A stretch of DNA of 64,000 bases, from assembly GCF_030684315.1 (NCBI RefSeq), contig NC_081355.1:16234761-16298760 (forward strand), in the 5' to 3' direction. The translations under genes and the position numbers were made by a program. Source of the stretch: Stegostoma tigrinum. Lineage: Eukaryota. The notes below the pieces were generated by a model that searched no databases, was not told the origin of the DNA, and was given only the letters and a program-made list of their open reading frames with translations. Shown piece after piece: positions 3,226 through 47,741 of the stretch (position 1 is its first letter; each line of letters begins with the position of its first letter).

Positions 3226-3435
3226 TCACTTGTAACGTAAATAAAAACCAAAAGAACAGCGGATGTAGTAAATCAGGAACAAAAACAAAGTTACTGGAAA
3301 AGCTCAGCAGGTCTGCCAGCACCTGTGAAGAAAAAAATAAGAGTTAAAGTTTCGGGTCCAGTGACCGTTTCTCAGAACATATATGAGAACTGCTGAGCTT
3401 TTCCAGCAACTTTGTTTCTGTTCTTCACTTGTAAC
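3226..3435. mobile_element. Fold-back PLE-terminus insertion (family B) with 11-bp TSD
   Basis: Inverted arms (acaaagttactggaaaagctcagcag / ctgctgagcttttccagcaactttgt). TSD tcacttgtaac at 3226-3236 and 3425-3435. Confidence 0.8.
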
Positions 3436-3509
3436 ATGCGTTTGTATAGCACTCGGGGGTCGGAGAAAACACGCCCCACACTTTTCAGAATGCAAAGTTG
3501 AATCCCTCT

Positions 3510-5713
3510 CACATCAGGCATTTATTGAGCAGTTCTACAGATTTCAGTTCTAAACTGGGGCAAGCCAAATTTCGATGGAATTAGACAGGAGCTTGCAGGT
3601 GATTGATTAGAGCGGTTTGTTTGCAGGCAAAGAAAGCTCTGGCAAGTGGGAGGCCTTTAAAAGTATGATAGCTAGGGTTTAAAGTCTATATGTTCCTGTG
3701 GGGGTGATGGGCAAGATTGGCAGGAGTAGGGAACCCTGGATGACAAGAGATATTGAGGCTTTGATCAGAAAAAAGAAGGTATGGCTCAGGAACAGGCAGC
3801 TGGGATCAAGGACTATATAGATGGAGGTATATAGTGAATGTAGGAGTTATTTGAAGAAATCAGGAGAATGAAAAGGAGGCATGAGATAGCTTTGGCTGAT
3901 GAAGATGAGAGAGAATCCAAAGAGATTCTATGAGTATATTAAAGGGAAAAAAAACTAGAGAGAGATAATAGGACCCCTCAAGGACCAAAGTGGGCACAGC
4001 AGGTGGGTGAGGTCCTCACTGAATATTTCTTCTGGGTTCCCTGTGGAGAAAGACAAGACAACTTGGGAACTTGGGGAAGTGGTGGCAACATCTTGTGGTC
4101 AGTCCACATCATGGTAGGGGTGGTGTTGGAAATATTAGAATATATGAAGGTGCATAAATCTCCTGGTCCTGATCAGATATATCTAAGAACCCTGCAAGAG
4201 GTTAAAGAAGAAATTGTGGGGGCCCTGGCTGATACATATCATCATTAGACCCGCATGAGGTCATGGAAGACCGGAGAGTAGTGAATGTTACGCCCTTATT
4301 CAAAAAGGGCTGAAAAGAAAAACCTGGAAATTATAGACCAGTAAGCCTAACATCTGTGTTTGATAAGTTACTTGAGGAAGTTCTGAGGGATAAGATATAC
4401 ATGCATTTACAAAGACAGGATTTTTTTTTAGGAGTAATCAGCACTGCTTTGTGCGTGAGAAATCATACGTCACAAATTTGTTAGAATTCTTTGATGAAGT
4501 GACTAGGAAGGCTGATGAAGGCAGGGTGGTAGACATAGTCCACATGGATTTCAGTAAGACCTTTGATAAGGCTCCACATGGTAGACTGACCTGGAAGGTT
4601 AGATCACATAGAATCCAGGGACAGCTGGCAAATTGGACACACAATTGGCTTGACGATAGGAAGCAGAGAGTAATAGTGAGAGGATGCTTGTTGGACTGGA
4701 GGCCTGTGACTAGTGGTGTGCCTTAGAGGTCAGTTCTGGGCCATTGCTGTTTGTTACCTATATCAACAATTTGGATGAGAACGTGCAAGACATGGCAGAT
4801 GACATAAAAATTGGCGGTATTGTGGACAGTGGGGAAGGTGATCAGAAATTGCAGCAGGATCTTGATAAACTGGGGAAGTGGGCAAAGAAAAGGCAAATGG
4901 AGTTTAATATAGAGAAGTGTGAGATGTTGTATTTTGGACAGTCAATTCAAGATAGGGGTTTCATGGTGAATGGGAGAGGCTTAAGGCGTGTAGTCGAACA
5001 GACAGACCATAAAGTTCAGGTGCAGTCTCTGAAAGTGGAGTGGCAGGTAGGTAGGTTAGTGAAGGCAGCATTTGGTATGCTTGCCTTTATTGGTCAGTGC
5101 ATTCAGTGTAGGAGTTAGGAGATCATGTTGTTTCTGTAGAGGGTGTTGATAAGGCCACTTTTGGAATACCATGGGTAACTCTGGTCTCCATGCTACAGGA
5201 AGGATGCTAGGAAAATTGAAAGGGTTCAGAAAAGATTGGCACGGATGTTGCCAGGGTTTGAGGCATAGAGAGAGGCTGAATAGGCTGAGGCTATTGTCTG
5301 TGGGGTGTTGGAGGCTCAGAGGTAACTTTATAGATATTTATATAATCACGAGGGGCATGAATAAGGTAAATAGACAAGATATTTTCCCCAGGGTGGGTGA
5401 GTCCAAAACTAGAGGGCATGGATTTTAGGTGAAAGGGGAAAAACTTAAGAGAGACCGAAGGGGCAATGTTTTCCACACAGGGTGCTGTATGTATGGATTG
5501 ATCTAGCAGAGGAAGTGGTAGAGGCTGGTACCATTACAACATTTAAAAACGTATCTGGATGGGTAGTAAATAAATAGGAAAGGTTTGTAGGGATATGGGG
5601 ATATGGGCCAGATGCTGGAAAATGGGACTAGATTAACTTAGGATATCTGGTCAGCATGAACGAGTTGGACCAAAGGATCTGTTTCGGTGCTCAATATCTC
5701 TGTGACTCTATGA
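3510..5713 (+). mobile_element. CR1-type LINE, 5'-truncated and decayed (RT ORF2 remnants plus 3' UTR)
   Basis: ORFs 4003-5428 carry KSPGPDQIY, TNLLEFF, DFSKTFDKAPH, VTSGVP and WQMEFN-like motifs with stops and frameshifts. Tail ends ...gactctatga. Confidence 0.9.
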
Positions 5714-6059
5714 TATGGTGTAGTTGTGGAAAATAATGTAGATCCATTTGAGGGGAAATTAGAGAAGTGCAAAGAAGAATGCAGCAGAAGGATATACTAG
5801 ACAGTTAGTCAGACGGGAAGAGGCTCATGAATCATAATCACTTAGAGACACTAGTTGGAAAGAATGACATAGTACTTTACGTAAATTTCTGGCTATGAGA
5901 AAAATGGGATGTATTTCTGACTTTCTTGTTTCTGCAAAGATGTGACATTTACTCTTCCCAAACTCTACTGCAAAGTATTTTTTTTAAACTGAGACTGCAA
6001 TAACAAATTAAGGAGAATTTTGAGTTCTGTTCACAAGTCAGACCACACCTAGAATACCA

Positions 6060-6340
6060 TAAAACTGTATTATAATTGTACAGTACAGAAAATGCCCAAT
6101 ACTGCCAAAGTTAAGCTAAATCTACACTAGTCTCACTTCTCAGCACTTGGCTCATAGCCTTAAACTTTATGACATTTCAAGCACTCATCGATTTAATTTT
6201 TGAAGGTTGTGAGGTTACCAGCCTCTACTATCCTCCCAGGCCATGCATTCTAGATCCGCACCACTCTCTGGGTGAAATGTTGTTCCTCAAATCCCCTCTA
6301 AACCTTCATCTTTGATTTTAAAATTACGTCCCCTTGTCTG
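6060..6340 (-). mobile_element. CR1 3' end fragment
   Basis: Reverse-complement similarity to the CR1 3' ends elsewhere in the window (accactctctgggtgaaa...cccctctaaacctt). Confidence 0.55.
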
Positions 6341-6352
6341 AGGAAAAATAGA

Positions 6353-6556
6353 CTGGCACTGGATATAGTGATAATGGGAACTGCAGATACTGGAGAATCC
6401 AATATAACAAAAGTGTGGAGCTGGATGAACACAGCAGGCCAAGCAGCATCTCAGGAGCGCAAAAGCTGACGTTTCAACTTTTGTGATCCTGAGATGCTGC
6501 TTGGCCTGCTGTGTTCATCCAGCTTCACACTTTGTTATCCTGGCACTGGATATAGT
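6353..6556. mobile_element. Fold-back PLE-terminus insertion (family A) with 17-bp TSD
   Basis: ~65-bp inverted arms. Perfect TSD ctggcactggatatagt at 6353-6369 and 6540-6556. Confidence 0.88.
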
Positions 6557-6586
6557 CCAGAGATGGTTCATTGTATTCAATCAGTA

Positions 6587-6835
6587 AAGGAATCCAGAGT
6601 TAGTAGGAACTTCAGATGCTAGAGAATCTGAGATAACAAGGCATACAGCTGGATCAACACAGCAGGCCAAGCAACAGAGGAGCAGGAAAAGCTGACGATT
6701 TTGGCCTAGACTCTTCTGCAGAAAGTTTTCTCAAGAAGAGTCTAGGCCCAAAATGTCAGCCTTCCTGCTGCTCTGATGCTACCTGGTCTGTTGTGTTCAT
6801 CCAGCTCGACACCTTGTTAGCAAGGAATCCAGAGT
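6587..6835. mobile_element. Fold-back PLE-terminus insertion (family A variant) with 14-bp TSD
   Basis: Inverted arms with decayed hammerhead cores. TSD aaggaatccagagt at 6587-6600 and 6822-6835. Confidence 0.85.
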
Positions 6836-7475: not shown

Positions 7476-8444
7476 ACTGTAATCCTGCCGGCCTATGACA
7501 GTCACAAAAACCTAATACTGTCATAAGCTTTTCTTTGCTGCATCTTAACCTGTATGTTAACCATGGGCTCGAGATTTGGCAGTACCACCCTTCCTCCATG
7601 TTGGGACATGTCAACACTTTGCCCATAGAATCCCACGTTCAAATACTTCTCATTGATTTGTCACCAATTTTCCTTCAAGTAGCTGCATTTGATCCACTTT
7701 CACAGATCACCCCTTAGCTCAATTATTTTTTACCTCAAATTAAAATTTCTATCCACATTCTACCTTTGCCCTTTCCCATGATGTTAAATCTGTGTTACAG
7801 CCACAATCTTCCAAATGTTCACCCATCACTACTTGGTCCACTCATTCAGCTTCATTTCCCAAGATGAAATAAAGTACAGCACAGCCCCACCCACCACCAC
7901 TCCAACTCCATCACTGGCTTATTTAAGTTTTGGCTAAAAAGGTTTTTCTGAACGTAGTTCAAATAATTTTATGCCCTTTGTGCCTTTCTCATTGTTTTTA
8001 TCTCAGTTGATATTTGGGCAGTTGAGTGCCCAACTATTATTGCTCCTTTTTTTTTGCATTCAGAAATGTGTGTACATATTTACCTACCTTCCCACTATTT
8101 GGGGTCTCATTGTACACAGAGCCGCTTGTGTTAACTTCCCTCATCTTTGATGGCTTCCTGACAACTAGATTGGATTCCTTAAATCAATAATGCCCCAACA
8201 GCCCCTACTCCAAATCTTTTTTTTTAAATCCACTCTCTATCCTGTCTGAAAACTTTGTCTCTTGGGATGCTGAGCTCCCTTTCATGTCTTCTTTCTTCCA
8301 ACTTTTCGCTTTAGCCCAGGTAGCTCGAGTTAAAAAGACTCCTGATTCTTGCCAGACCGGAATTTCTCCAGCAGTTGCTGTTTTTGTTCCAGTATTTGCA
8401 TCTCTATGGTTTTCCTGACAGCCCTAGTTGGGCAGGGACAGCAG

Positions 8445-9278
8445 CCCAAGATGACTTTCCATATTAAGCAGAGGTTCACCTGCACATCTGCCAATGTGGT
8501 ATACTGCATCCATTGTACCCGGTGTGGCTTCCTCTACATTGGGGAACCAAGCGGAGGCTTGGGGACCGCTTTGCAGAACACCTCCGCTCAGTTTGCAATA
8601 AACAATTGCACCTCCCAGTCGCAAACCATTTCCACTCCCCCTCCCATTCTTTCGATGATATGTCCATCATGGGCCTCCTGCAGTGCCACAATGATGCCAC
8701 CCGAAGGTTGCAGGAACAGCAACTCATATTCCGCTTGGGAACCCTGCAGCCCAATGGTATCAATGTGGACTTCACCAGTTTCAAAATCTTCTCTTCCCCC
8801 ACCGCATCCCAAAACCAACCCAGTTCGTCCCCTCCCCCCACTGCACCACACAACCAGCCCAGCTCTTCCCCTCCACCTACTACATCCCAAAACCAGTCCA
8901 ACCCGTCTCTGCTTCGCTAACCTGTTCTTCCTCTCACCCATCCCTTCCTCCCACCCCAAGCCGCACCTCCATCTCTTACCTACTAACCTCATCCCACCTC
9001 CTTGACCTGTCCGTCTTCCCTGGACTGACCTATCCCCTCCCTACTTCCCCACCTATACTCTCCTCTCCACCTATCTTCTTTTCTCTCTATCTTTGGTCAA
9101 CCTCCCCCTCTCTCCCTATTTATTCTAGAACCCTCACCCCATCCCCCTCTCTGATGAAGGGTCTAGGCCCGAAACGTCAGCTTTTGTGCTCCCGAGATGC
9201 TGCTGGGCCTGCTGTGTTCATCCAGCCTCACATTTTATTATCCTGGATTCTCCAGCATCTGCAGTTCCCATTGTCACT
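8445..9278 (+). mobile_element. Penelope-like element 3' fragment: GIY-YIG endonuclease, hammerhead motif and terminal repeat
   Basis: FTCTSANVVYCIHCTRCGFLYIGE / TKRRLGDRFAEHLRSV...LQPNGINVDF is a GIY-YIG domain, broken by a 1-nt frameshift near 8546. It ends in the same 3' terminus used by family A fold-backs. Confidence 0.9.
9151..9180 (+). ncRNA. Minimal hammerhead ribozyme motif (PLE type)
   Basis: CTGATGA-A-GGGTCTAGGCCC-GAAAC-GTC: conserved CUGAUGA and GAAA boxes, stem II GGG/CCC, palindromic ACGU helix III and a GUC cleavage triplet. Confidence 0.8.
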
Positions 9279-10065: not shown

Positions 10066-10244
10066 TCACACGTTAGTATAAAAACCAAAAGAATTGTGGA
10101 TGCTCTCAATCAGGAGCAAAAACAAAATTGCTGGAAAAGCTCAGCAGGTCTGGCAGCATCTGTGACTGAGAAAACAGAGTTAATGTTTCAGGTCCGGCGG
10201 CCATTCCTCAGGAACTGTTCCATTTTTGTTTCACACCTTAATAT
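10066..10244 (-). mobile_element. PLE-terminus insertion (family B), mostly single-armed, with degenerate 14-bp TSD
   Basis: Same terminus as 3237-3380. Flanks tcacacgttagtat / tcacaccttaatat. Confidence 0.65.
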
Positions 10245-11148: not shown

Positions 11149-11351
11149 AGGTACACTCCAGGAACAGCAGATGCTGGAGAATCTTAGATAACAAGGTGTA
11201 GGGCTAGATGAACACAGCAGGCCAAGCAGCAGAGGAGCAGGAAAGTTTGATGTTTTGGTTCCCTGAAATGTCAAGCTTTCCTGCTCCTCTGATGCTGCTT
11301 GGCCAGCGGTGTTCATCCAGCTCTACAGCTTGTTATCTTAGGTACACTCCA
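11149..11351. mobile_element. Fold-back PLE-terminus insertion (family A variant) with 12-bp TSD
   Basis: Inverted arms. Perfect TSD aggtacactcca at 11149-11160 and 11340-11351. Confidence 0.85.
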
Positions 11352-11660
11352 AGTTGTTTGTTATCTATTCACTCAGGGCAAAATGCTTCCGATGGGAGAA
11401 TTGCTGTCTGGCCATGCCATCTCACTGTGCCATACAGACTGCTGCTCATGAAGAAGGTTACTGCCACCATCCTTTAGTTGGTGGAAACTACAGTGTGCGC
11501 TCAGCTTAACGTGGCTGAGGAAACCACAAGAAGAGCTTCCTGCAGTAAACAAGATATAGTGACATTGTCGTGAGACACATTATCACAAAGACTTGGAAAA
11601 TGACTAGACTCTAAGCCCCAATCCTTTGAGATCCTAAGCTGTTTTGCCCCCAGTCTATTT

Positions 11661-11690
11661 CTGAAGAAGGGTCCTGACCCGAAACGTCAG
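11661..11690 (+). ncRNA. Hammerhead-like motif in a solo PLE terminus (~11640-11770)
   Basis: CTGAAGA-A-GGGTCCTGACCC-GAAACGTC (CUGANGA variant, stem GGGUC/GACCC). Confidence 0.65.
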
Positions 11691-13350
11691 CCTTCCTGCT
11701 CCCCTGATGCTCCTCCAGCTCCATACCTTGTTAACTCTGACTCCAGCATCGGCAGATCTTGCTCTCTCTACATGACATCATGATAGTAGGTGGTGCTTAT
11801 GACACTCCTCGGTATTAACCCATTCACATCTATATATAGCCCCCATAAAGGAGGCAACAAAAGAGAGACTGAATAGAATAAAAATTAGGCATTTAAAATA
11901 GCTCGAAGTAGAATGTCATCTAGCATAGATGTGATGTATAGTAGGTTACAGGGTAAAGGCATGTTGGACGTAACAGGGGCTGTATCCAAAATATTCCAGT
12001 TCTCTTCATGGGGGGCTTACCAAAACTCTGGAGGGTTATAAATGGCAAACCAAATATTCAAACGTAAGAAAAAGGGGGATAAACCAGGTACCCATAGCTC
12101 TACAGTCACTGGTGGGCATCCATCACATACAACAATCTGGACAAATTATACTGTCACTTGGAAGAACTTGGGCTACGCAATGACAGCTCATGTGTATTTG
12201 ACAATGCCACACTGTACCCAATAAACTTGATCAAGTTTGTTGTTTATGTAATAGAGAGGATTGATGAAGGCAGTAGGAAGACGGTGATTGATGTAACAGT
12301 GTACAATCTCAAAAGGTGGTCGAACAAATACCTCGTAATACACTGGTTAGCAAAATTGAAGCCGATGGTATCAAACTGGCACCATGGGTGCAAAGTTGAT
12401 TAAGGAACAGAAAGTAAGGAGGAGTGATCAACTGTTGCTTTCAGACTGGAGATAAGTATACAGTGGTTCCAATTGAGATAGTTATGGTGATCAAAGCTAT
12501 GTTTGATATGAATTAAAGACATGGGCTTGGTTATATGGGCATTATTTCAGTGCAGAAACAGTGAGCGAGATGGCAACAGACAGGCAAAACGAGTAGATTT
12601 TCAACAGAGGTGCAAAGTGATACATTTTGGAGGAAGGCATGACGAGGCAATAGAAATCAAATGGTACACTTTGTGAGATGTGCAGAAGCAACAAAATCTG
12701 GGGCGGAAGTCTTTGCAAGTGGCAGGGCAAGTTGATAAGGCAACTGAAGTTAAAAAAAAAAGTGGGTCCTTCGTTATTGATAGCAGTAGTTTCCTAAAAG
12801 TAGGGGGAAAGAGTTTCAGTTTCATTCTCATTGGTCAGCCAGCCTATTTCATAGGCTTGTCTGCCTCTCTGATGTGGAGCACTCCATAGCAGGCTGCGAC
12901 TGTAGGAATGGCTAAGGACTTTGTTGCTCCAGTAACAAGAGCTCAGGAGTTGGATGTGCCCTCTGACCCCAGAATGTATGGGTCCCGAGGGGAAGGTGGT
13001 GAGCTGGAGACTCAGGTAGAAATGCCACAATTCCTCCTGGCCCTTAGGCAGAGCTTACTTGCATGAAAAATGAGTCTGCAGCAAAAACAAAATGCTTTAA
13101 TTTCTGTTGCAGACAATGTTCTGTGAGTCGAGTAGCATGACTAGATTGGGGAAGGGGGATGTTTAAATGTTTAAGGGAAAAAAAGCAAAGTACTGCAGGG
13201 GATGGTAATCTGAAAGACTTCTGGAGACAGTGGGTCAGGTTACCCGAGAACATAACTTGGTCAACAGTTCAGGAATTCGACCTTTCCTCAGAATTACTGA
13301 TATCCGTACGACAGTAACGCAGAGCAGACTGGGGAAAACAGGCCACTTAC

Positions 13351-14504: not shown

Positions 14505-15661
14505 AATTTTAGTAAAGCTTTTGATAAGGTTCCTCACGGTAGGTTATTGCATAAAATACGGAGTCATGGATTGAGGGTGGTTTAGCGGTTTGGATCAAAC
14601 ATTGGCTAGCTGGAAGAAGGCAGAGGGTGGTGGTTGATGGGAAATGTTTATTCTGGAGTTCAGTTACTAGTGGTGTACCGCAAGGATCTGTTTTGGGGCC
14701 ACTGCTGTTTGTCATTTTTATAAATGACATGGATGAGGGCGTAGAAGGGTGGGTCAGTAAATTTGCAAATGACACTAAAGTCAATGGAGTTGTGGACAGT
14801 GTGGAAGAATGTTGGATGTTACAGTGGGACACGGATAAGCTGCAGAGCTGGGCTGAGAGGTGGCAAATGGAGTTTAATGTGGAAAATTGTGAGGTGATTC
14901 ACGTAGGAGGGAGTAACAGGAATACAGAGTACTCGGCTAATGGTAAGATTCTTGGTAGTGTGGATGAGCAGAGCAATCTCGGTGTCAATGTACATAGATC
15001 CCTGAAAGTTGCCACCCAGGTTGATAGGGTTGTTAAGAAGGTGTACCGTGCGTTAGATTTTATTGGTAGAGGGAATGAGTTTCGCAGTCCTGAGGTCATG
15101 TTGCAGCTGTACAAATCTCTGGTGCGGCTGCACTTGCAGTATTGCGTACAGTTCTGGTCACCGCATTATACGAAGGATGTGGAAGCATTGGAAAGGGTGC
15201 AGAGGAGATTTACCAGGGTGTTGCCTGGTATGGAGGGAAGGTCTTATGAGGAAAGGCTGAGGGACTTGAGGCTGTTTTTGTTAGAGAGAAGAAGGTTAAG
15301 AGGAGACTTAATAGAGACATACAAGATGATCAGAGGATTAGATAGGGCGGACAGTGAGAGCCTTTTTCCTCTGATGGAGATGGCTGGCATGAGGGGACAT
15401 AGCTTTAAACTGAGGGGAGATAGATATCGGACAGATGCCAGAGATAGGTTCTTTACTCAGAGTAGTAAGGGCATGGAATGCCCTGCCTGCAACAGTAGTA
15501 GACTCGCCAAGTTTAAGGGCATTTAAATGGACATTGGATAAACATACGGATGAAAACGAAATAGTGTAGGTTAGATGGGCTTCAGTTTGGTTTCACAGGT
15601 CGGCGCAACATCGAGGGCCGAAGGGCCTGTACTGCACTGTAGTGTTCTATGTTCTATGTTC
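14505..15661 (+). mobile_element. CR1-type LINE, 5'-truncated, relatively young (299-aa RT fragment)
   Basis: VTSGVPQGSVLGPLLFVIFIND...KFANDTK...WQMEFN...LERVQRRFTR. The 3' end has a (ttctatg)n tail. Confidence 0.93.
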
Positions 15662-15878
15662 AAGCCCTTGGATTGAATTTCTTCACCCAATCAAGATGCT
15701 GGGATTGCCCATTGTCAAGCTGATTCTGTCCCTGTGCTGATTGAGGACACAGACTTTGAAAATTCAAGGAAAGTGCTCAAGACACTCAACCGAGACAGTT
15801 TCAATATTGCTGGAGATATTCCTGCCTGCATAACACATTGCACACTTCCAAATCAGCCCATCCCTTTGGCAGCTGATA

Positions 15879-18796: not shown

Positions 18797-19100
18797 TGCA
18801 CCAGGGAGTAACAGAGATAATGGGAACTGCAGATGCTGGAGAATCCAAGATAATAAAATGTGAGGCTGGATGAACACAGCAGGCCAAGCAGCATCTCAGG
18901 AGCACAAAAGCTGACGTTTCGGGCCTAGACCCTTCATCAGAGAGGGGGATGGGCTGGGGGTTTATTCCAGAACCCTCACCCCATCCCCCTCTCTGATGAA
19001 GGGTCTAGGCGTGAAACGTCAGCTTTTGTGCTCCTGAGATGCTGCTTGGCCTGCTGTGTTCATCCAGCCTCACATTTTATTATCTTGCACCAGGGAGTAA
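18797..19100. mobile_element. Fold-back PLE-terminus insertion (family A) with 15-bp TSD and hammerhead cores on both strands
   Basis: Near-perfect ~105-bp inverted arms. Perfect TSD tgcaccagggagtaa at 18797-18811 and 19086-19100. Confidence 0.92.
18911..18940 (-). ncRNA. Minimal hammerhead ribozyme motif on the FHOD3 pre-mRNA strand
   Basis: The reverse complement is CTGATGAAGGGTCTAGGCCCGAAACGTCAG, identical to 9151-9180. Confidence 0.75.
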
Positions 19101-23604: not shown

Positions 23605-23614
23605 ACGTGTGCAT

Positions 23615-26900: not shown

Positions 26901-26934
26901 AATAACTGGAGATAAGGAAATTATTTTTATTATT

Positions 26935-28704: not shown

Positions 28705-29038
28705 ACTCCTCAAGTGTGGAAGCAGGCCTTTTGGCCCAACAAGTTTACACCAACCCTCCAAAGAACATGACACACAAACCCATACTCATACTCTGTATTT
28801 CCCATGGCTGACACATCTAACCTAGACATCCCTGGCCCCTATGGGGTGATTTTAACACGGCCAATCCAGCTAACTTGCACATCTTTGGACTGTGGGAGGA
28901 AACCGGAGCATCAGGACGAAACTCACGCAGACACTGGGAGAACACGCAAACTCCGCAAAGACAGTCACCCAAGGATGGAATCGAACCCAGGTCCCTGGTG
29001 CTGAGAGGCAGCAGTGCTAACCGCTGAGCCACTGTGCT
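28705..29038 (-). mobile_element. tRNA-derived SINE (HE1-like)
   Basis: ggaatcgaacccaggtccctggtgctgagaggcagcagtgctaaccgctgagccac. Confidence 0.85.
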
Positions 29039-29620
29039 GTTTGTTCCTTCATTTTACCATCACCTCCACTCACCACCACAGCTTTGTCAAACAACTACAC
29101 ACAACTTGGTCATTCCCAACACACAACTAGTTCCATTTCTTTGAATCCAGCCCTAATGCAAAAGCTGGACAGTAACATTCAAAAGGTTTTTAAAACAAAA
29201 AATATTGAGTGATAAATATTTTCTTAATTTAAACTGAAACTAACTAAACTTATAAAAGCTTAGGGCAGTCAAATGGTGGAAATCCTAAACATAGACAAAA
29301 AGCAGCATCTATGGAGAGAGAAAAAAAGTCACTGCTTCAGGTCCACAATTGGCACTAGTTCTGACAGAAAGATATTGGACTCTGCATGAATGCTGTCAGA
29401 GCTGTTCTACATTTCCAAATTTCCTGTTTCCAGTCAAGTCAAAATAACTCCTTTCGTCAGTCTTCAAATAAAAACAAACACACTTCTTTTAAGCTTCTCA
29501 TTCCCCTTCGGCCAGAAAGATTCCCGAGATCTGGTTTAACATCACATGGAAAATAAATTTTCAACAAAATCTTAAGATATGAAGAAAACAAAACCTACTG
29601 AGCAAAACAAATGTCAAAAA

Positions 29621-29846
29621 TCAATAACTGAATACAAAAACAAAGTTGCTGGAAAAGCTCAAAACAGAGTTGACGTTTTGAGTCCAGTGACCATCCCTCC
29701 GAAGGACCCAAGGACACCAGGCCCGAAACGTTAACTGTTTTCTTCTTCACAGATACGGCCAGACCTACTGAACTTTTCTAGCAGCTTTGTTTTTGTTCCT
29801 GATTTACAGCACCTGCAGTTCTTTGTTTTTATTCAATAATTGAATA
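29621..29846. mobile_element. Fold-back PLE-terminus insertion (family B) with 14-bp TSD
   Basis: Inverted arms. TSD tcaataactgaata / tcaataattgaata (one mismatch). Confidence 0.78.
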
Positions 29847-30289: not shown

Positions 30290-30890
30290 AAGTGGGAAGA
30301 TTGGTGAGGGAAGTGGGGTCTGGATTTGGGGGCAGTAGGAGGTCGGGGTGGGATCAGGATGGAGTCATCATCAACTTCCACCTGGAAAGAAGTTCAGCGA
30401 GACTCAGTATAAGCTGGAACAACAGTACCTCATTTCTGCTTGGGGCCCCGGCAGGCTTCAGGGCTCAATATAGAGTTCAATAATTTTCTTCCTCCTTCTC
30501 CCATGTCCTTTACCCATCCTGACACCCCAGACCCTGTTATCATTCGGACCGCTTTCAGACCAGACCACCCGTCTCTACCTGCATAAAAGTCCCCATTCGC
30601 AGCTTGTCTTTCTCCTCGCTTTACCATTATCCATCCCTTTGTCTGCCTGTCTTTCTCTCCTCTGGGCTCTGTTTCTACCTCCCACCTACTCCTTTACCTC
30701 TCTACACCACCTAATCCCATCATCAGCATTCATACCACCTTCTCGTAGCTATAATCGGTTCTGAAGAAGGGTCACCGGACCCAAAATGTGAACTCAGCTC
30801 TCTCTGCTCAGGTGCTGCTGGACCTGCTGAGTTTCTGCAGCAATTTGTTTATTCTTTGACATTTACAGTATCCATGGATCTTTGCTCTGT
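30290..30890 (+). mobile_element. Decayed Penelope-like 3' fragment (GIY-YIG C-terminus and terminus)
   Basis: aagctggaacaacagtacctcattt..., decayed hammerhead ctgaagaagggtcaccggacccaaaa at 30761, family B-like end. Confidence 0.6.
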
Positions 30891-31176
30891 AATCAACTTT
30901 ATGGATGTTAGCGTCACCATTCCATAGTGAGTAGTTAACAGAATTGAGCCTAAAAATTGCTGCACAGTGACTTAATCCTTTCCAATGTTTGACTGGCAGA
31001 CAGTGTGAGAAAAGAAATTCACCCCTCTGCTGTGCGAGCAGAACTCCTAAAACCTAATAGAGTCTTAGAGTTTTACAGCACAGAATAGGACTCTTTGGGT
31101 CACCGGGTGTGCACTGGCCATCAAGTACCTATCTACTCTAGTCTCATTTTCCATCATTTGGCCCATAACCCAATGA

Positions 31177-33240
31177 ATCATACAGCCATAGAGCTATACA
31201 ACACGGAAACAGACTCTTCGATCCAACTCATCCATGCTGACTAGATATCTTAAAATAATCTAGTCCTGTTTGCCAGCCTTTTGCCAATATCCCTCTAAAC
31301 CCTTCCTATTCATGTATCCATCCAGATGCTTTTTCAATGTTGTAATTGTACCATCACCCATCACTTGCTCTGTGTGAAAAAGTGGTCTCTTAGGTCCCTT
31401 TTAAATCTTTCCCCTCTCACCTTAAACGTATGCCCTCTAGTTTTTGACATTACTACCCCGGGGAAAACACCTTAGCTATCCACCCTATTCATGTCCTCAT
31501 GACTTTATAAACTTCTATAAGCCTCAGCCTCCAACGGTCCAGGGAAAATAGCCCCAGCCTATTTAGCCTCTTCCCTGTAGCTCGAGCCCTCCAAACACGG
31601 CAATGTCCTTGTAAATCTTTTCTGAATGCTTTCAAGTTTCACAACATCCTTCCTACAGCAGGGAGACCAAAACTGAAAGCTGTATTCCAAAAGTAGCCTA
31701 AACAATGTCCTGTACAGCCTCAACATGACCTCCCAACTCCTACGCTCAATGCATTGACCAATAAACACAAGCATACTAATGCCTTCTTCACTTTCCTGTC
31801 TACTTGTGGCTTTACTTTCAGGACACTACGAACCTGCACTCCAAGCCTCTCTGTACAGAGACGTCCCCAGAACCCTACAATTAACTGTATAATCCTTCCA
31901 TGATTCGCCTTTCCAACATGCAGCACCTCACATTTCTCTGAACAAATCTCCATCTGCCACCCTTCGGCCCAAGAGCCCACCTGTTCAAAATCCCACTGTA
32001 CTCTGAGGTAACCTTTTTCGCTGTCAACTACACCTTCAATTCTGGCGTCATTGGCAAACTTACGAATCATACACGCTGATTTCACATCCGAATCATTTAC
32101 ACAAATGATAAAAAGCAGTGGACCCAGCACCAATCCTTGTGGCACACCGCTGGTCACAGGCCCCCCAGTCTGAAAATCAACCCTCCACCACCACCACCAC
32201 CCTCTCTCTCCTTTCTTCGAGCCAGTTCTGTATCCAAATCGCTAATTCTCCCTGTATTCCATATGATCTGCTAACCAGTCTACCATGTGGAACCTTGTAG
32301 AATGCCTTACTGAAGTCATGCAGATTTTTACCACTGCTCTGCCTTCAATCATCTTTGTTACTTCTTCAAAAAACTCAGCTAAGTTAGTGAGACTCGATTT
32401 TCCAGGACAAAGCTATGTGAACAATCCCTAATCAATCCTTGCCTTTCCAAATACGTGCAAATCCTGTCTCTCATGGTCCCCTCCAACAACTTGACCACCA
32501 CCAATGCCAGGTTCACTGGTCCATTGTTGTCTGGCTTTTCCTGGCCACCTTTCTTAAATAGTGGCACCATGTCAACCAACCTCCCGTCTTCTAGCACCTC
32601 ACCTGTGACTATTGATAACGGAAATATCTCAGCAGGGGGCCCAGCAATCACTTCTATAGCTTTCCACAAAGTTTCAGGGTACACCTGATCAGGTCTCAGG
32701 ATTCATCCACCTTTATGCGCTTTAAGATCGCCAACACTTGCTCCTCTGTAATATGGACATTTCTCAAGATGTCACTATTTATTTTCCCAAATTCTCTCGC
32801 TTCTGAATCCTTCTCCACAGTAAACGCAGACGCAATGTTCACATTTAGTATCTCCTGTGCTTTCACACATCGGCAGCCTTGCTAATTTTTAAGGGATGCC
32901 ATCCTCTCCCTAGTTACTCTTTTGCCTTTGATGTACTTGTAGAATCTCTTTGGATTCTCGTTAACCCTACTTGCCAAAGCTACTTCATGTCCCCTTTTTA
33001 CCCTCCTGATTTCAATCTTAAGTAAAGTCCAACTGTCTTTATACTCTTCTAGGGATTCACTCGATCCCTGCTGTCTATATCTGACATATGCTTCCTACTT
33101 CTTGACCAAAACTTCAACTTCTCTAGCCAGCCAGCATTCCCTACACTTGCCGACTTCACCCTTCACCCTAACAGGAGCATACTGTCTTTGGACTCTCGCT
33201 AGCTCATTGTTGAAGGCTTCCCACTTTCCAGCTGTCCCTT
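31177..33240 (-). mobile_element. CR1-type LINE, 5'-truncated and decayed; apparently nested in an older CR1 (31060-31175 and 33240-33640)
   Basis: ORFs 31559-32684 carry VPLFKKG, TSGVPQGLVLGPLLF, KFANDA, WQME and LLEYSFQFWSP. Confidence 0.9.
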
Positions 33241-39545: not shown

Positions 39546-41513
39546 CACAGAATCCTGTGACAGGCTAGTGCGAGGTCTCAGGATGTAGATGGGTTGTGAG
39601 TGCCAACGGAGAGCTGGATGGGGTAGTAGTAGCAGCACATATAGGGAAGACCTTGTTGGTGATGGTGGAGAGGGCGATGTCACTCCCGTGTAAAGGGGTC
39701 TGTTGATGAAGGCACCTTCCCACCCAAGACCCAAGTAGGGTCACGTTCTGGGCTTCCCAGTTGCTGCTGATTTCCTCCTGCCGCACTAAATATGGAGGCC
39801 GGCTGGGAAAATCTCTTAACCAGTCATTCATTGGCAACGTAAAGGCCTCAGATGGCACTGGAGCGTTTATGCTGACATAGGCTCCCCAACTCCAGGACAG
39901 CGAGCTGATCAGGGTGGGACCAGGAGCCGTGCGATGGCTTTTCAAGGAATTTTGTGGGCCCCCTCAACACATCCCTCCTAAAATTCCCACAAACTCCATT
40001 TTTTTTGGGGGTGTGGGCATGGACAGAGAGGAGAGGAAAGCACTGTAAAGTTCAACTTGTGATCTAGCCTTCGGTTTCTGAATGTGGGATCTATCTGTGC
40101 ACAGATTGGCTGCCAGTCTTCCAACACAACAGTGCAAACATTTCAGAAGCTTTTCAAAGTTTTAAAGTGCTTTGGGACATCCTCAGGGAGTGAAAGGGTG
40201 AATGCAAAATGTCAGATCTTTGTTTATAAAAAGCACATTCATAATCTGTTACATCCAAAATTTTCTCCTGCTCACAGTGGGTAGAACAGGAACCAATATC
40301 ACAAAGCCTACCCTGCCAGGATAAATTGGGATTTCAGACACACACTGACCAACGTCATCAGATGAAATGGTTAGAAAACTCTAAGCACGGTGTGCCTAGA
40401 TTGTCAATTATATTCTTGATAGCACAGCCATAGAGTCCTGAATATTTTCGAAATTACAAATGCAACAACAATGCATTTTTCAAGACTGTTGGCGCCTGTA
40501 ATTCTGTACTGATTCCACTGTTGATTTGACGCTGAAGATGAGAGAGAAGCTGACTTTTGATTTAACCTCCAGTTTCTTCCAAGAAAACATCACCAGATGA
40601 TGACTGACCAAGATCAGGAAGTCAGTTTGAAGGACATCACAAATAAGGGGCTGGAGTTAAATATGACTCTCACCATGTTTTTGTGCATCACTGCTGACCT
40701 GTAACTCATTCAGCTACTCTGTTCACAACCCTTCAGATTATCTACTCATCTAACATGTACTTTCACTGAGAACCCTTGACTGTGACCATTTCTTTAAGGT
40801 CCCAATACAAAGGCTTTTGTGGTGCAGTGGTATTTTCTCTAGCCCGGAGCCAGGAGGCCTGGGTTTACCTGCTCCAGTGGTGTGTCGTAACATCTCTGAC
40901 AAGTTGATTTAAAAAGATCTTTGCCATTTGTTCTGTTTCTCTCATACTCAGAATTTCCTTCATATGGTAAACTGTTGAGGCATCCTTGTGCATGATGAAC
41001 ATAGTATTGGTGTTGTGAGTTGATCCTACATGCCACTTAATCCAAACACAAAGGCTGTTGTATTCAGCAAACTAATTCTCTGTACTCCACTCTTATTACA
41101 GGGAAGTTTGCACATTTGAAAAAAAACACTACTTTTAATCCACATGAGAATGAATGTCAAAATAAAGGAATATTAAACGTAATTCGCTGCAAATGTTGAA
41201 TTTTATCAATACAACCAGTGACCTTTTATTAAAAAAGAGCTCAATTACACCACACCACTACCTCTTCATTCATCTTGTATGCTCTCTTACATTTTTCTCC
41301 CAATTGTGGAAGGGCCTCAGTTTCTTTTGTTTAGCTTTTTGGATGGAAAGTAAAAATTCTGAAAACAAAATTAAGTCTTTTGGCAACATTTCCTGTATTT
41401 TTTTAAAAATCCGAAACAAAACTACGAAAAACCAAGTTTAACTTACTCTCACAAATAAAAAAAAAGAACAAGACAACAGAGCACGTTTGGGAATAGATAT
41501 CTGGATCTTGTAC

Positions 41514-41704
41514 CTGTTCATTACTCTTCTGTGTACGATTTTCAAAATGATGATCCTCTCAGCACAATCTTTCAGAAACTCGGACATTTTCTGCTTCAGG
41601 CTGGGTTTGATTTCGTGCTTTGCAATAGCCTTTAGATGATCCCATGAGGCTTTGCACCTCCGCTCCAGCTGGGAAAGGTTTTCTTGAAGCTGGTCAAAGT
41701 CGAT
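41514..41704 (-). CDS. FHOD3: FHOD3 coding exon (FH2; IDFDQLQENL...IVHRRVMNR)
   Basis: FHOD-like translation. Acceptor ccgcag, donor GTACAA, 191 nt, phase 0/2. Confidence 0.95.
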
Positions 41705-43914
41705 CTGCGGACAAGAAATCAACCCTTGTATTTTTTTTAAAAAGTCTTTTTTACAGCTCAAGTCAGATTTGCTCACATTTCTGACATCAGTGCCATTAGA
41801 ACAGGCAGCCAAGGTGTAGGACAGAAAGGTTTGCAGTGCCAACAAAACACAGATCATTCCAGATTGAGCTAAAGAATCGAAAAAGAGCCATGCCTCAGCT
41901 GAACTTTTATGGAGACTGGGCAGCTGGAGAGGGTATGACAAATCATGTTTTCCCCCCATGGAAAGTCTTAACTCTCAAATGCTAACTATGTTCCACTCCT
42001 GACTTGCTGCAAGTTTCCAGCATCTTCTGCCTTTATTAACTCCTTTAGTTTTAGACTTTGATTTGAATATGACTCAAGCTAATAGGACAGCTATTGCCTG
42101 TAAGGGTGGTCAGCATAATAACTTGAATCGTCTCGATTCTATCGCATAAAAGCCAATAAGATTGCTGGAATGGAGACATCAGACTAGCACAGTATAGGGG
42201 TTCAGCAAGTTTTAGGGGAAGGAATCATGTTGATCTGTGGAGATATTCTAACAGTAACAATGCAATCAAAATGCAATGGTGCTTCATTCACCAACCTGAG
42301 AGTATATCTCGTGTGCTAACGCAAACATTTGTTTAAACAACAACTTATTTTTGTAGCTGCTTAACTTACTTTGGTGAATTTTCTCTGTTGGGATCAGCAG
42401 TGACAACTCAACAGCTCAGAAGTAGAGAGAGCAAGAAGGAGAAATACCATGAAGCAATGGGTCTCAAAGGAACATTCCATAGTAGCTGGTCAAGAACAAT
42501 TGCCCAGAAGAAAAATAAAGGATCTTGTTTGAGGTAGTTTCAGTCAAAGTTGCATTGATTTTTAGACTGAAATGAGATTATCACTCACCTTAGAACTATC
42601 TGTTGCAAACAGGCACACAAAGAGCAGAGATTAAGCATCTACAATCACTGCCCAATTTCATGGACAAGGATTGCCCATTCTTTGCCTCTGCCATGTGTTG
42701 TATTAGCAGAGAAAATCAACCCTTAGTATGTTTAAGTCTATGGCTAGGTCAGCGATTTTCAATGAAAAACCATATTGAAAGGTGATATCTATTGTGTTGG
42801 GCTGATACATTTTACACCAAACATGGTCATTTAGCAAAATTCTTGCAGGTCTCCCTCTCAGGTGGTAAAATGGTTAATGGTTTCAAGACAAAGAGCCTCT
42901 GGGATTGCACTGAGCTTCTGTGCACGATAAAGTCATTAGTTTAACAAATGCTAACTCCCAACTGCTCCCGGTGTTTGATTTATGACAAATAGACCTGCTC
43001 CAGTGATGAAGAGTTGACGGCAGCACAAATCCCAAACGGTCAGGCTGGATCGTAAACATGTCTTTACATTGCTGACAGCAGCATTTGCAAAACTCCCCTT
43101 AGCGGCCAAGGTTAGATTGATTAGGCCAGCAGATTCTAGTGGCTGGTGTTAAGACAAAGGAACAAAACGCATGCCTGCTCTAAACTCATGAAGAAATTGA
43201 AGCACAAAGAAATTAAGAGCTTTTTTTTAAAAAGAAAACGTAAAAATCGCATGCTGAGTTTGAGAGATGGTATCTCATTCTCAAGCGAGTTTAAACAATG
43301 TGAAAAGTTAAATGAGGTTGTTACTTTCAGCTTTACATCTCTAATGTGTTTTCTTTAGCAACAGATATTGACAGTTCTAGCATCAGGGAATCTGTAGCTG
43401 ATAAAGGAGCAACTGTTGAATTTATCAACATGAAGGAAACAAATAAGCCTGGTTCCAATAAGTGAAAATGGTTATGGTGATCTTAACTCAGTCTCTCTAA
43501 AGTGTCAGGCAACTGTTTTGTGCTAACTAGCTTGCAATAGTAGGAACTTTGCATGTGGTCTGAAGTCAAAACTAAACCAATTGCCTTAATATATTTACAC
43601 TGTCATAAACTCAACAATTTAAAGGTTATATCCATTAGAACTACAGAATTTGTTGCAGACAATGGATTGAAATCATGTGTTCTTAGAACTGATCTATTTA
43701 GGTCACTGCCCATAAGACTTTCTACCTTTGTTTGGAAAAATTACTTTCCCAAAACTAACCCATATTCATCTGTCTCTATTGTGAAATCCAGAATTTGAAT
43801 TAAAATATATCTATTCATATACCTTTCGTCACATCAAGAGTTATTATTCTCTTTCAGTATTGAATCAGGCAAAAATTACAGTGTTCAGTTCTGCTTGAAA
43901 TATTCCCTAAGCAT

Positions 43915-44330: not shown

Positions 44331-44978
44331 TAGATAACTTAGAGGAAACTAGCAAACTTGATTGCAGAAATGCTACATATGGAAGCAGGCCAATTCTTTC
44401 AGCCTACCAGACCAAGCTATAAACACATCAAGCAGGTTATGTCATTTCTCGTCTGCAGAGTTCATCAGATAGAATGATAGGAGATAAACAGGAAATTTAG
44501 CAAGGTTGAAAAAAAATAACAATTCACAAAAAAAAGTTAAACTAACCGAAACACCAGTCATGAAGAGTGAATCGCAAGATCTGTAATGTATCATTTCACA
44601 AGTTAAATAACACGTGACTGCTTGATAGAAAAGCTCAAAAGTCAGAATTCAGAATAATTATAACACAGCTGGATGATATTATATAAGTTCTTTTTTAAAA
44701 TGGGAGTTATAGATATCTAATGGCTATTTAAAATCTCCAGACCTAGATCCTACAAACTAAGAAACTGCAACTCCTAAATTTTTCAAATTAACCTTTCTAG
44801 ACATGTTATGACACACCTATGGAGGAGATGGGACTTGAACCTAGGTCTCCTGGTTCAGAGGTAATGACATTACCACAGTGCAACATGTATCTGCTGCTGC
44901 TTCTGTACTTGTCAGGTCCATAAGTCAATGTAAAATAACCAATATCTAATGTACTGTACATGTTCTCTCTGTATATCA

Positions 44979-45183
44979 AAGGCCAGAAGTCACACGTTAC
45001 TAGGTTATAGTCCAACTGGTTTATCTGAAATCTCAAACTTTCGCAGTACTGCTCCTTCATCACCAGACAAAGGGGCAGTGTATGGAAAGCTTGTGATTTC
45101 AGATAAACCAGTTGGACTCATAATCTGGTGTCATGTGACTTCTGGCCTTGTTCACCTCAGTCAAACACCAGCACCTCTGCATT
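44979..45183. mobile_element. Fold-back PLE-terminus insertion (family D)
   Basis: Arms aaggccagaagtcaca...tccaactggtttatctgaaatc / gatttcagataaaccagttgga...tgtgacttctggcctt. Decayed hammerhead core with GAAAGCTT helix III, and a ~34-nt extra tail on the right arm. TSD unclear. Confidence 0.7.
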
Positions 45184-46381: not shown

Positions 46382-46543
46382 CTTGGCTGACCTTGTGATG
46401 GCCCCAATCTCTGAATACAGGTCTGAACTATCTGGAAATTTTTCCACCACAATAGTTGCTGTGTGATGCAGCAGTGATTGCTTATGCACTGTGTCTTTTA
46501 CTTCTGGTACTTTCTCCAAGTACCCGAGCTCAAAACCTTTTGC
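46382..46543 (-). CDS. FHOD3: FHOD3 coding exon (FH2; [27 protein letters not shown]...ITRSAK)
   Basis: FH2 'GF.L..L.KV.EVKD...K.SLLHH' motif. Acceptor ggcag, donor GTATGT, 162 nt, phase 0/0. Confidence 0.95.
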
Positions 46544-46950
46544 CTGCCAGGAGAAGTGGGAGGGGGGAAAAATAATTACTCCAAAAGATACATATTTAGC
46601 ACTGACAGGGATCATTATGTTTGCAAAAGCAGAACCTAATCACATATAAAGTAAAATTATGCGACTAATCTTATCATTAGCAATAAAGTCAAATGTTTAA
46701 AATTCATTGCTGTAATACAAAACACGAAGAGACACTAAGTGGATGAGCACTACAATTGACCATGTTTACTGAAAATATAAACAATCCTGCCCACCAGGAA
46801 GTCCCCACATGACAGTGTTTTGAACAAGGTTGGCATTGACTCAGGTGACAATATGTGCTCCACAGCTCAAATAACTGGCCGGCAATTACTGGATTTATTC
46901 TCTGCAGCATACATCCAATGACACCAGTAGTTGTTGTCTATCCCCAATTA

Positions 46951-47167
46951 CCCAAGTGCTGAGATAATAGGAACTGCAGATGCTGGAGAATCTAAGGTAA
47001 CAAAGTGTGGAGCTGGATGAACACAGCAGGCCAAGCAGCATCTCAGGAGCACAAAAGCTGACGTTTCGGGCCCAGACCCTTCATCCTCTGATGAAGGGTC
47101 TAGGCCCGAAACGTCAGCTTTTGTGCTCCTGAGATGTTGCTTGGCCTGTGTTTGCCCAAGTACTGAG
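46951..47167. mobile_element. Fold-back PLE-terminus insertion (family A) with 13-bp TSD and an intact + strand hammerhead core (47088-47117)
   Basis: TSD cccaagtgctgag / cccaagtactgag. Core ctgatgaagggtctaggcccgaaacgtcag. Confidence 0.88.
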
Positions 47168-47337
47168 CTGCTTCCTCAAACATTTTAGAGAGAAGTTAAG
47201 AGTCAACCATATTGGGCCAGATGACAGGAAAATTCCTTACTTAAAAAGGACATTTGTGAACCAGATGGTTTCTTTTTGGATAAGTGGTTACCATTGTGGA
47301 GATTAGAATTTGATCTGGAATTGTAAGCTAAGTGAAT

Positions 47338-47741
47338 CTAAATACAGATTCTGGATGTGAGTTTGCTCACTGAGCTGGAAGGTTAGTTTTCAGACGTTTT
47401 GTCACCATTCTAGGTAACATCATCAATGAGCCTCCGACGAAGCGCTGGTGTTATGTCCTGCTTTCTATTTATCTGGTTAGGTTTCCTTGGGTTGGTGATG
47501 TCATTTCCTGCGTTGGTGATGACATATCCAATGCAGGGAATGACATCACCATCCCAAGGAAGCCTAACCAGATAAATAGAAAGCGGGACATAACACCAGC
47601 GCTTCGTCGGAGGCTCGCTGATGATGTTACCTAGAATGGTGACGAAACGTCTGAAAACTAACCTTCCAGCTCAGCGAGCAAACTCACATCCAGAACCTCA
47701 ACCTGAGCTACAAATCTTCTCAAAACTCGCTAAATACAGAT
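47338..47741. mobile_element. Fold-back PLE-terminus insertion (family C) with ~165-bp arms and 12-bp TSD
   Basis: Long near-perfect inverted repeat. Perfect TSD ctaaatacagat at 47338-47349 and 47730-47741. Confidence 0.9.
47618..47651 (+). ncRNA. Minimal hammerhead ribozyme motif (family C)
   Basis: CTGATGA-T-GTTACC-TAGAAT-GGTGAC-GAAAC-GTC: a 6-bp stem II unrelated in sequence to family A, with the same core. Confidence 0.8.

Follow-up and report, generated by a model that had tools for sequence, protein, structure and literature searches.

Short head-to-head pairs of Penelope-like element 3' ends, each with one tail and, where scorable, closely matched inner ends, in a shark genomic window

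Insertions of Penelope-like elements (PLEs) have been described as carrying an inverted, 5'-truncated copy, a palindromic junction, a target-site duplication (TSD) and a tail of 30-40 nt at one end (PMC3846280; Craig et al. 2021, PMC8557442). In the parts of these sources cited here, the way in which PLEs make such inverted and tailed insertions was called undefined (PMC8557442), and the later insertion steps were left open by in vitro work (PMC11167929). A single 64-kb stretch of shark DNA (Stegostoma tigrinum, contig NC_081355.1), referred to as the window, contains 11 short hairpin elements built from PLE 3' ends, and raises the question of what these hairpins are and how they were made.

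The ten loci listed in a sequence-only reading of the window were all confirmed, with their coordinates, as inverted head-to-head pairs of PLE 3' ends (10/10), and an eleventh, absent from that list, was found at 10066-10244. The density is thus 11 per 64 kb, about 1 per 6 kb, within the window. The hairpin cores spanned 151-380 nt, and their ORF-less arms of ~65-200 nt were imperfect copies of each other (for example, 75/90, 111/115 and 161/172 matches). The hairpins, cited below by their start positions, were as follows.

3226-3435: family B hairpin; TSD 3226-3236 and 3425-3435 (11/11); tailed arm left, 39 nt extension; right arm short, with an apparent internal deletion
6353-6556: family A hairpin; TSD 6353-6369 and 6540-6556 (17/17); tail left, 33 nt; junction within the hammerhead, -7/-1 from C17, 2-nt overlap
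6587-6835: subfamily A' hairpin; TSD 6587-6600 and 6822-6835 (14/14); tail left, 31 nt; junction ~-30/-30
10066-10244: family B hairpin; TSD 10066-10079 and 10231-10244 (12/14); tail left, 41 nt; right arm mostly gone, its last ~12-15 nt left
11149-11351: subfamily A' hairpin; TSD 11149-11160 and 11340-11351 (12/12); tail left, shortened, 24 nt; junction ~-11/-10
18797-19100: family A hairpin with the best-matched arms (111/115); TSD 18797-18811 and 19086-19100 (15/15); tail left, 36 nt; junction -49/-59, 2-nt overlap; intact hammerhead, minus strand from 18940
23347-23604: family A hairpin; TSD 23347-23362 and 23589-23604 (16/16); tail left, 36 nt; junction -28/-28, 6-nt filler; intact hammerhead, minus strand from 23489
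29621-29846: family B hairpin; TSD 29621-29634 and 29833-29846 (13/14); tail right, 37 nt; left arm with a ~27-nt internal deletion
44978-45183 (44979 below): family C hairpin without a clean TSD; tail right, 33 nt; junction ~-27/-28
46951-47167: family A hairpin; TSD 46951-46963 and 47155-47167 (12/13); tail left; right arm stopping ~22 nt before the usual tail-less end, net extension 56 nt; junction -25/-29; intact hammerhead, plus strand from 47088
47338-47741: family D hairpin; TSD 47338-47349 and 47730-47741 (12/12); tail right, 35 nt; junction ~-133/-123; intact hammerhead, plus strand from 47618

A census of PLE ends (nhmmer, E<1e-3) gave 20 loci, comprising 11 short hairpins, 1 long inverted pair and 8 single arms; weak matches at 13179 and 29302 (E 0.003-0.011) and all those with E>0.08 were excluded. 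The earlier claim that hairpins are the main PLE product here therefore accords with 11 of 20 loci, a share that is biased upward because these very families were the basis of the profiles, and the 8/20 single arms are a caveat to the dual priming considered below. All PLE-end pairs were inverted, and no head-to-tail tandem units with a hammerhead each, the hallmark of retrozymes, were found among them. Loci other than the short hairpins included the following.

8445-9278, plus strand: single-arm, 5'-truncated family A PLE with a GIY-YIG coding remnant, frame break near 8545, 3' UTR, hammerhead at 9151-9178 and tail
11658-11769, plus strand: single-arm A' end, tailed, beginning ~3 nt before hammerhead C3
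23612-23990, minus strand: single-arm family B copy, tail-less, reaching the endonuclease C-terminus
30370-30890, plus strand: single-arm family B-type copy, tailed, with the endonuclease C-terminus and a possible 8-bp TSD (p=0.012, uncorrected)
56389-56449, plus strand: family B end, tailed, 61 nt, with a possible 12-bp TSD (10/12, p=0.02, uncorrected)
57716-58623: old long inverted pair with B-related ends, a GIY-YIG remnant in the left arm (57975-58190, minus strand) and no TSD; it may be one insertion or two
62692-62913, minus strand: single-arm A' end, tail-less, with an internal deletion

The four arm families proposed earlier were recovered, namely A (with a subfamily A', 15-30% diverged), B, C and D; A and B cross-matched by HMM. 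As claimed, family A arms matched the end of the copy at 8445-9278, for which no inverted partner or TSD was found. The translation of 8546-8779 was 94% identical to carpet-shark proteins P0001 (Stegostoma) and P0002 (Rhincodon), and the P0001 alignment ran along 8445-9192, into the hammerhead region. P0002 matched GIY-YIG with E 9e-5; its RVT_1 match, also with E 9e-5, fell below the curated cut-off. By eye, the translation of 8448-8779 contained a CxxC between two motif halves and histidines downstream (motif per PMC8557442), while the Neptune/Nematis-type CX2-5CxxC linker was present in P0002 and P0023, in a region lying upstream of the window copy. No Pfam match was obtained for the window's own endonuclease pieces, so the link of family A to RT and GIY-YIG came through relatives; no PLE RT was found within the window. 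Judged through these relatives only, the source of family A is a PLE encoding an RT plus a GIY-YIG at the C-terminus in one ORF. In the Atlas, a GIY-YIG cluster first appeared at rank 21 (score 0.91), with the family on 26% of its members. B-type ends were joined to endonuclease C-terminal remnants at 23612-23990, 30370-30890 and 57975-58190. Families C and D had no coding copy in the window, and their tail, hammerhead-like motif and architecture suggest an assignment to PLEs.

The description of the elements as hammerhead-bearing was too broad. An intact minimal core was present in 4/11 hairpins (18797, 23347, 46951 and 47338); by eye, four others spanned a decayed motif (3226, 6587, 10066 and 44979) and three ended inside it (6353, 11149 and 29621). 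Our motif search returned eight matches in the window, six in PLE ends (four hairpins and two single arms) and two weak ones elsewhere. The motif showed the features of minimal type I hammerheads as given in the cited part of PMC4209133, that is, a conserved core, a bulged base before helix II and a palindromic helix III; self-cleavage is putative. No hammerhead was among the 13 Rfam matches at E<=1, which were mostly miRNA-like hairpins plus one snoRNA, none of them reaching the gathering score. In its minimum-energy fold, 9120-9278 did not form the ribozyme, and the single-arm 3' end RNA folded no better than shuffles (z -1.18). The hammerhead is probably a passenger, since a hairpin transcript would carry at most one sense copy, buried in a long duplex.

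The 11-17 bp TSDs reported for nine of the listed loci held up, each scoring higher than any of 1,500 pairs of random positions (p<0.001). The TSD of hairpin 10066 matched at 12/14 (p=0.006), and the best candidate at 44979 (9/10, p=0.019) was not clean, overlapping one arm and lying 7 nt off the other end. Long variable TSDs directly adjoined the arms in 10/11 hairpins, with one pair bracketing both arms. An AT-rich target preference was not found in the TSDs (58.7% versus 58.4% for the window).

The insertions and their long TSDs had been rightly described, but two features had been overlooked, a diagnostic one-sided tail and coupled inner ends. An extension was present on exactly one arm in 11/11 hairpins (24-56 nt, and 31-41 nt in 9/11), for which the probability under independent choice at each end is at most 0.5^11 = 5e-4. 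The outer ends of both arms sat at recurrent family positions. The inner ends of the two arms fell at nearly the same template position, with a mean difference of 3.9 nt in nine scorable hairpins, and 8 of 362,880 permutations were as good (8 of 40,320 without 47338). Hairpins 3226 and 10066 were left out of this test; adding their visible right-arm starts gave a permutation p of 5e-4 and lowered Spearman rho to 0.47 (p=0.15). The inner ends of 6587, 11149, 29621, 44979 and 47338 were placed partly by eye. The tail-less arm extended further upstream in 4/9 hairpins (18797 by 10 nt, 46951 by 4, 47338 by 10 and 29621 by 3), the ends were equal within 1 nt in four further scorable ones, and at 6353 the tailed arm was 6 nt longer, with a 2-nt overlap at the junction. 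As the earlier reading had stated, the junction sequence was different in every copy, none being shared in 10 same-group pairs (6 A, 1 A' and 3 B). Hammerhead C3 lay within 3 nt of the junction in 6/11 hairpins from four sequence groups (p 0.0001-0.006 by scan statistic, with nulls of four shapes), a clustering that points to an RNA feature. Small local palindromes were seen at the 3226 and 10066 junctions.

In 6/6 elements the two arms agreed in being A or A', and different hairpins came from different subfamilies; 18797 lay nearest, at a distance of 0.05, to the coding copy at 8445. The partner arm was the nearest neighbour in just 1/6 A/A' elements (18797), so that a single shared RNA is only a possible template. 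Gene conversion between arms was considered and found no support in the arm distances, partners not being nearest except at 18797. The tailed arms of 6587 and 11149 had a common 3-nt deletion that was missing from their partners, a caveat to dual priming in that a single RNA does not explain it.

The hairpins are very short, dead PLE insertions, each consisting of two mirror-image end copies. They share with the PLEs of PMC3846280 and PMC8557442 the head-to-head inverted 5'-truncated copy, the 30-40 nt tail at one end and the variable TSD (8-10 bp in Adineta). They differ from the published insertions, which have a long or full-length body in the parts cited, by their ~65-200 nt, ORF-less arms, by TSDs of 11-17 bp, and by making up about half of the counted loci. 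The excerpts of PMC12910113 and PMC8969392 contain the known inverted-copy description and nothing further. Pairs of minimal type I hammerheads on opposite strands, 100-700 bp apart, are known from Schistosoma and were ascribed to truncated PLEs (Cervera and de la Pena 2014, PMC4209133), in one sentence without TSD, tail, junction or mechanism analysis in the part cited. The hairpins had been presented as a new class; they are rather the shortest form of a known inverted-copy-plus-tail insertion (PMC3846280, PMC8557442 and PMC4209133, as excerpted). Going beyond the earlier reading are the one-sided tail, the coupled inner ends and the junctions near hammerhead C3. LINE-1 twin priming starts at both target ends, with the element RNA as template, and inverts an upstream, non-overlapping part of that RNA. 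The hairpins likewise point to priming by both target ends, but the 3' stretch that is copied is the same in their two arms. Non-LTR retrozymes (Li, Clavereau, Pollet 2026, bioRxiv 10.64898/2026.07.22.740005) are also ORF-less, hammerhead-containing derivatives of PLE ends; their units repeat in head-to-tail tandem and include two or more sense ribozymes, whereas the hairpins are head-to-head with at most one per strand. A tie to the ancient vertebrate Eulor/UCON hairpins was unsupported by the cited part of PMC5753468.

A biochemical precedent is PAc, the Poseidon element of Anolis (Frangieh et al. 2024, PMC11167929), the one PLE reported there to cut both target strands in vitro. PAc cuts and extends both strands, uses mainly uncleaved RNA, begins reverse transcription at two sites that delimit the tail, and is a predicted dimer; it showed no start-site difference between strands and prefers AT-rich targets. 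The window differs in that its TSDs are not AT-rich and the family A relatives have a Neptune/Nematis-type linker; these contrasts, and the lack of a start-site difference between strands in PAc, are caveats to dual priming. The main text of PMC11167929, as excerpted, draws no link to inverted insertions, a one-tail rule or coupled stops; its supplementary figures may show inverted insertions, and a term search of its text supplements gave no match. Priming from both target strands, already proposed in the earlier reading, fits best and agrees with the PAc data, although for these hairpins we infer it.

We consider it likely that each hairpin is a one-off, dead-on-arrival insertion by a PLE with an endonuclease, in which both 3' ends of a staggered cut primed and the resulting short cDNAs were joined. 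An RT/GIY-YIG protein, probably a dimer on PLE RNA, would cut both target strands 11-17 nt apart, leaving two 3' overhangs, as the TSDs suggest. Each 3'-OH would prime reverse transcription of uncleaved PLE RNA, the tailed arm from an outer start site and the tail-less arm from an inner site 31-41 nt upstream; the use of one of each per insertion is suggested by the hairpins, not by PAc. Extension of both cDNAs would end once ~65-200 nt had been made, with almost identical stops on the template that lie most often at the 5' edge of the hammerhead core; this coupling may reflect a single RNA common to both or two RTs that advance in concert. Annealing is precluded by the like polarity of the two cDNAs, so that they would be joined by a template jump or end-joining, with a 0-2 nt overlap or a few filler bases; annealing through hammerhead stem II was rejected because the overlaps are just 0-2 nt. 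Fill-in would then make the TSD, giving the order TSD, inverted arm, junction, sense arm, TSD. The arm geometry and the recurrent outer ends are as expected from two target-primed cDNAs. Further caveats are the sample of 11 hairpins from a single 64-kb window and, for families C and D, the lack of a coding copy within it.

In an account proposed for head-to-head palindromic PLE junctions by Arkhipova et al. 2013 (PMC3846280, as excerpted), self-priming takes place on an antisense template; a cDNA or antisense RNA would fold at its 3' end and copy itself as the second arm. This directly explains the near-symmetric inner ends and same-subfamily arms, and fits both 6353, with its longer tailed arm and overlap, and the junction palindromes at 3226 and 10066. 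Yet the tail-less arm has template sequence missing from the tailed arm in 4/9 hairpins, which copying back from a tailed cDNA could not supply, and the ends agree within 1 nt in four more; copy-back would have to halt precisely at the inner start site, and in PAc sense RNA is copied from primers on both target strands (PMC11167929). We regard such self-priming as unlikely. Symmetric inner ends could also arise later from deletion at the hairpin tip, a caveat to dual priming: insertions born longer and less symmetric would have been shortened by slippage or cruciform repair. Arm deletions at 3226, 10066, 29621 and 62692, the long inverted pair at 57716-58623 and 2-nt overlaps at two junctions agree with such trimming, which is compatible with dual priming but would remove the case for coupled termination. 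Against it, six of 11 junctions lie within 3 nt of C3, suggesting an RNA feature, and 18797, with the best-matched arms, is already short; we hold trimming to be quite unlikely.

Amplification, whether MITE-like or non-autonomous, of a small set of master hairpins would account for elements that are small, ORF-less, non-coding and dense (11 in 64 kb), with strong fold-back (z = -28.6 for 18797), junctions clustered near C3 and a deletion common to two A' tailed arms. However, the TSDs are variable at 11-17 bp rather than fixed and short, and one arm carries an unpaired extension of 24-56 nt in 11/11 hairpins, so that the ends are neither symmetric nor terminal inverted repeats. Nor, in this small sample, do the 10 same-group pairs have a common junction; core lengths (151-380 nt) and internal sequence are not uniform across the hairpins, and family A hairpins stem from different subfamilies. 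Amplification of this kind is very improbable, and the earlier reading's PLE origin, de novo formation and distinction from MITEs were all supported. Inverted chimeras are a known sequencing artefact. An assembly or amplification artefact, or a chance neighbouring of two independent insertions, is nevertheless scarcely credible given the imperfect arms, the single TSD pair around both arms and the one-tail rule.

Within dual priming, a concerted complex is a tentative possibility, in which one uncleaved RNA would be used from its outer site at one target end and its inner site at the other, with a joint stop, usually at the protein-bound hammerhead, making short hairpins the commonest PLE product in sharks. 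Neither this model nor the strict one-tail, coupled-stop pattern was found in our literature search.

The regular asymmetry of the hairpins makes them a useful fossil record of PLE insertion, in the simplest product form of two start sites, one junction and one TSD. If a density of ~1 per 6 kb holds beyond the window, shark genomes would contain very large numbers of them, so that counting could test dual priming against self-priming, and a single RNA against two. For annotation, the hairpins resemble MITEs or miRNA precursors and are neither. If the concerted model is true, short hairpins would be a genome-scale readout of an undefined mechanism and would supply, in quantity, both long double-stranded RNA and repeats open to mislabelling as MITEs or miRNA precursors.

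All ten hairpins recognized by the sequence-only reading, in which two 3' ends of Penelope-like elements (PLEs) are joined head to head, were present as described and were the principal inverted repeats with closely spaced arms in the window. Direct repeats adjoining the arms were scored against 1,500 random position pairs, and the target site duplications (TSDs) of nine loci, 11-17 bp long, each outscored all 1,500. This search found no clean TSD at hairpin 44979, the best candidate (p=0.019) overlapping the arm. An eleventh hairpin of family B was identified at 10066-10244 (TSD 12/14, p=0.006), with its right arm reduced to the last 12-15 nt. The two arms of a hairpin do not match perfectly (111/115 matches at 18797 and 75/90 at 6587, for example), evidence against a sequencing chimera. 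Clustered insertions were also seen:
6353-6835: two hairpins 30 bp apart
23347-23990: 7 bp between a family A hairpin and the end of a family B copy

The PLE origin of the arms was traced through coding remnants. The endonuclease remnant at 8546-8779 shared 94% identity with Stegostoma and Rhincodon proteins, and the Rhincodon protein combined RT and GIY-YIG matches within one chain with a CX4CxxC linker, a type that marks Neptune/Nematis-type PLEs in the available part of PMC8557442. The Stegostoma protein alignment spanned 8445-9192, reaching the 3' region that makes up the family A arms. B-type ends were joined to endonuclease C-terminal remnants at three places:
23612-23990
30370-30890
57975-58190
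Within the window no coding copy of families C and D was found, and both were assigned to PLEs by architecture only. By eye, similar short motifs precede the inner and outer ends within each family (9240-9278 and the family A and B arms; TTATC-like in A and T-rich in B), which might reflect a recognition element common to both start sites.

A census with profile HMMs made from the arms (E<1e-3) yielded 20 loci, comprising 11 short hairpins, eight single arms and one long inverted pair that lacks a TSD (57716-58623); the reversed window gave no match at E<=1. Matches with higher E values were left out, two of them at E 0.003-0.011. The proposal that hairpins are the main insertion product therefore holds for about half of the 20 loci only, a share biased upward because the profiles derive from these same families. 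Other features of the window were as follows:
29290-29440: old, decayed B-related hairpin-like element, uncounted (E 0.003 for its minus arm; remnant of a plus arm recognized by eye)
13179-13293 (minus), 50985-51064 (plus), 8350-8411 (plus): B-related PLE ends, older and degenerate
41441-41974 (minus): exon-like, Pfam formin FH2 domain match (E 2.5e-14)
14555-15526 (RVT_1 match, E 2e-8), 3639-5714, 31134-33231, 60740-61535: mutually matching LINE RT remnants, presumably CR1/L2-like
25949-29039, 50327-50656, 54646-54974: dispersed SINE-like repeat family of ~330 bp, which we take to resemble the shark HE1 SINE
A formin gene probably lies at least partly within the window.

The hairpins showed three regularities. 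Exactly one arm carried an outer extension, or tail, in 11/11 hairpins (39, 33, 31, 41, 24, 36, 36, 37, 33, 56 and 35 nt, the 56-nt value including additional loss from the tail-less arm; 8 left, 3 right), a pattern with a probability of at most 5e-4 under independent choice per end. Inner arm ends differed by a mean of 3.9 nt in template position in the nine scorable hairpins, whose junctions fell anywhere between about -1 and -133, counted from the cleavage site. This agreement was equalled by 8 of 362,880 permutations (8 of 40,320 without the family D hairpin 47338), with the inner ends of five hairpins partly placed by eye and 3226 and 10066 dropped; adding these two at their visible right-arm starts left the permutation p at 5e-4 but brought Spearman rho down to 0.47 (p=0.15). 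Six of the 11 junctions lay within 3 nt of C3, the 5' edge of the hammerhead core (p 0.0001-0.006 under four null shapes picked after the data were seen). Most arms pass through the cleavage site, and the template was therefore uncleaved RNA. The tailed arms of both hairpins of A', a subfamily 15-30% diverged from A (6600-6725 and 11160-11260), had a common 3-nt deletion absent from their tail-less partners.

From this geometry we infer dual target priming for the shark elements. A staggered cut would leave a 3' overhang on each strand; reverse transcription of the 3' region of the RNA would start from both, and the two cDNAs would directly give TSD, inverted arm, sense arm and TSD. The one-tail rule suggests that the ends may use different start sites within one complex, and the coupled stops hint at a single shared RNA or at a pair of synchronised RTs. 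Arms were joined by 0-2 nt overlaps or short fillers. By eye, the outer junctions of 6353, 11149, 18797, 23347 and 46951 often showed a 1-3 nt TSD match to the replaced element sequence, as expected under target priming. The accessible text of PMC11167929 describes PAc, a Poseidon-clade PLE protein of Anolis, as cutting and extending both strands in vitro, starting at two sites whose spacing corresponds to the tail, preferring uncleaved RNA and being a predicted dimer. However, PAc belongs to another clade, it showed no start-site difference between strands, and the AT-rich target preference it reports was not found at the TSDs here. Also counting against this reading are the deletion seen in the tailed but not the tail-less arms of the A' hairpins 6587 and 11149, the single arms at eight loci, and the partner arm being the nearest neighbour in only 1/6 A/A' elements.

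Self-priming is proposed for head-to-head PLE palindromes in the available part of PMC3846280 and accounts for arm symmetry; however, copy-back of the second arm from the tailed cDNA gives a clean fit for 6353 only, while the tail-less arm extends further upstream in 4/9 hairpins and inner ends are equal to within 1 nt in 4/9. Symmetric hairpins could also arise by later trimming of longer inverted insertions, arm deletions being visible at several loci, but clustering at C3 is not predicted by trimming. Amplification as MITEs fails, contradicted by termini, TSD length and junction identity, with a common junction in none of 10 same-group pairs (a small sample).

A motif search of the window returned eight hammerhead matches, six of them in PLE ends; an Rfam search detected none of these hammerheads. 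The description of the hairpins as hammerhead-bearing stands for the four of 11 with an intact core in one arm; by eye, a further four span a decayed hammerhead and three are cut within the motif. The two copies per hairpin point in opposite directions, so that a transcript holds at most one, paired inside a long stem. Minimal PLE hammerheads require a dimer or protein, according to the portions available of PMC4209133 and PMC11167929, and those in the hairpins are likely passengers.

We conclude that the hairpins are real, PLE-derived and not MITEs. They form a minimal variant of a known PLE insertion type and no new class, since an inverted 5'-truncated copy, one-end tail, palindromic junction and variable TSD already appear in the accessible parts of PMC8557442, PMC3846280 and PMC8969392. 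Opposite-strand hammerhead pairs 100-700 bp apart are recorded for Schistosoma in the text available of PMC4209133. Non-LTR retrozymes, in the part available of bioRxiv 10.64898/2026.07.22.740005, are tandem, whereas the shark hairpins are inverted. The openly accessible papers covered by the search, PMC11167929 being covered by its text, yielded neither an account of short PLE hairpins as a dominant product in sharks nor a dual-priming model for them. Flanked by direct repeats of 11-17 bp, hairpins would be substrates for clean loss via replication slippage, which could imitate an empty site in comparative tests. Being abundant and countable, the hairpins form a record from which the PLE integration route could be resolved.
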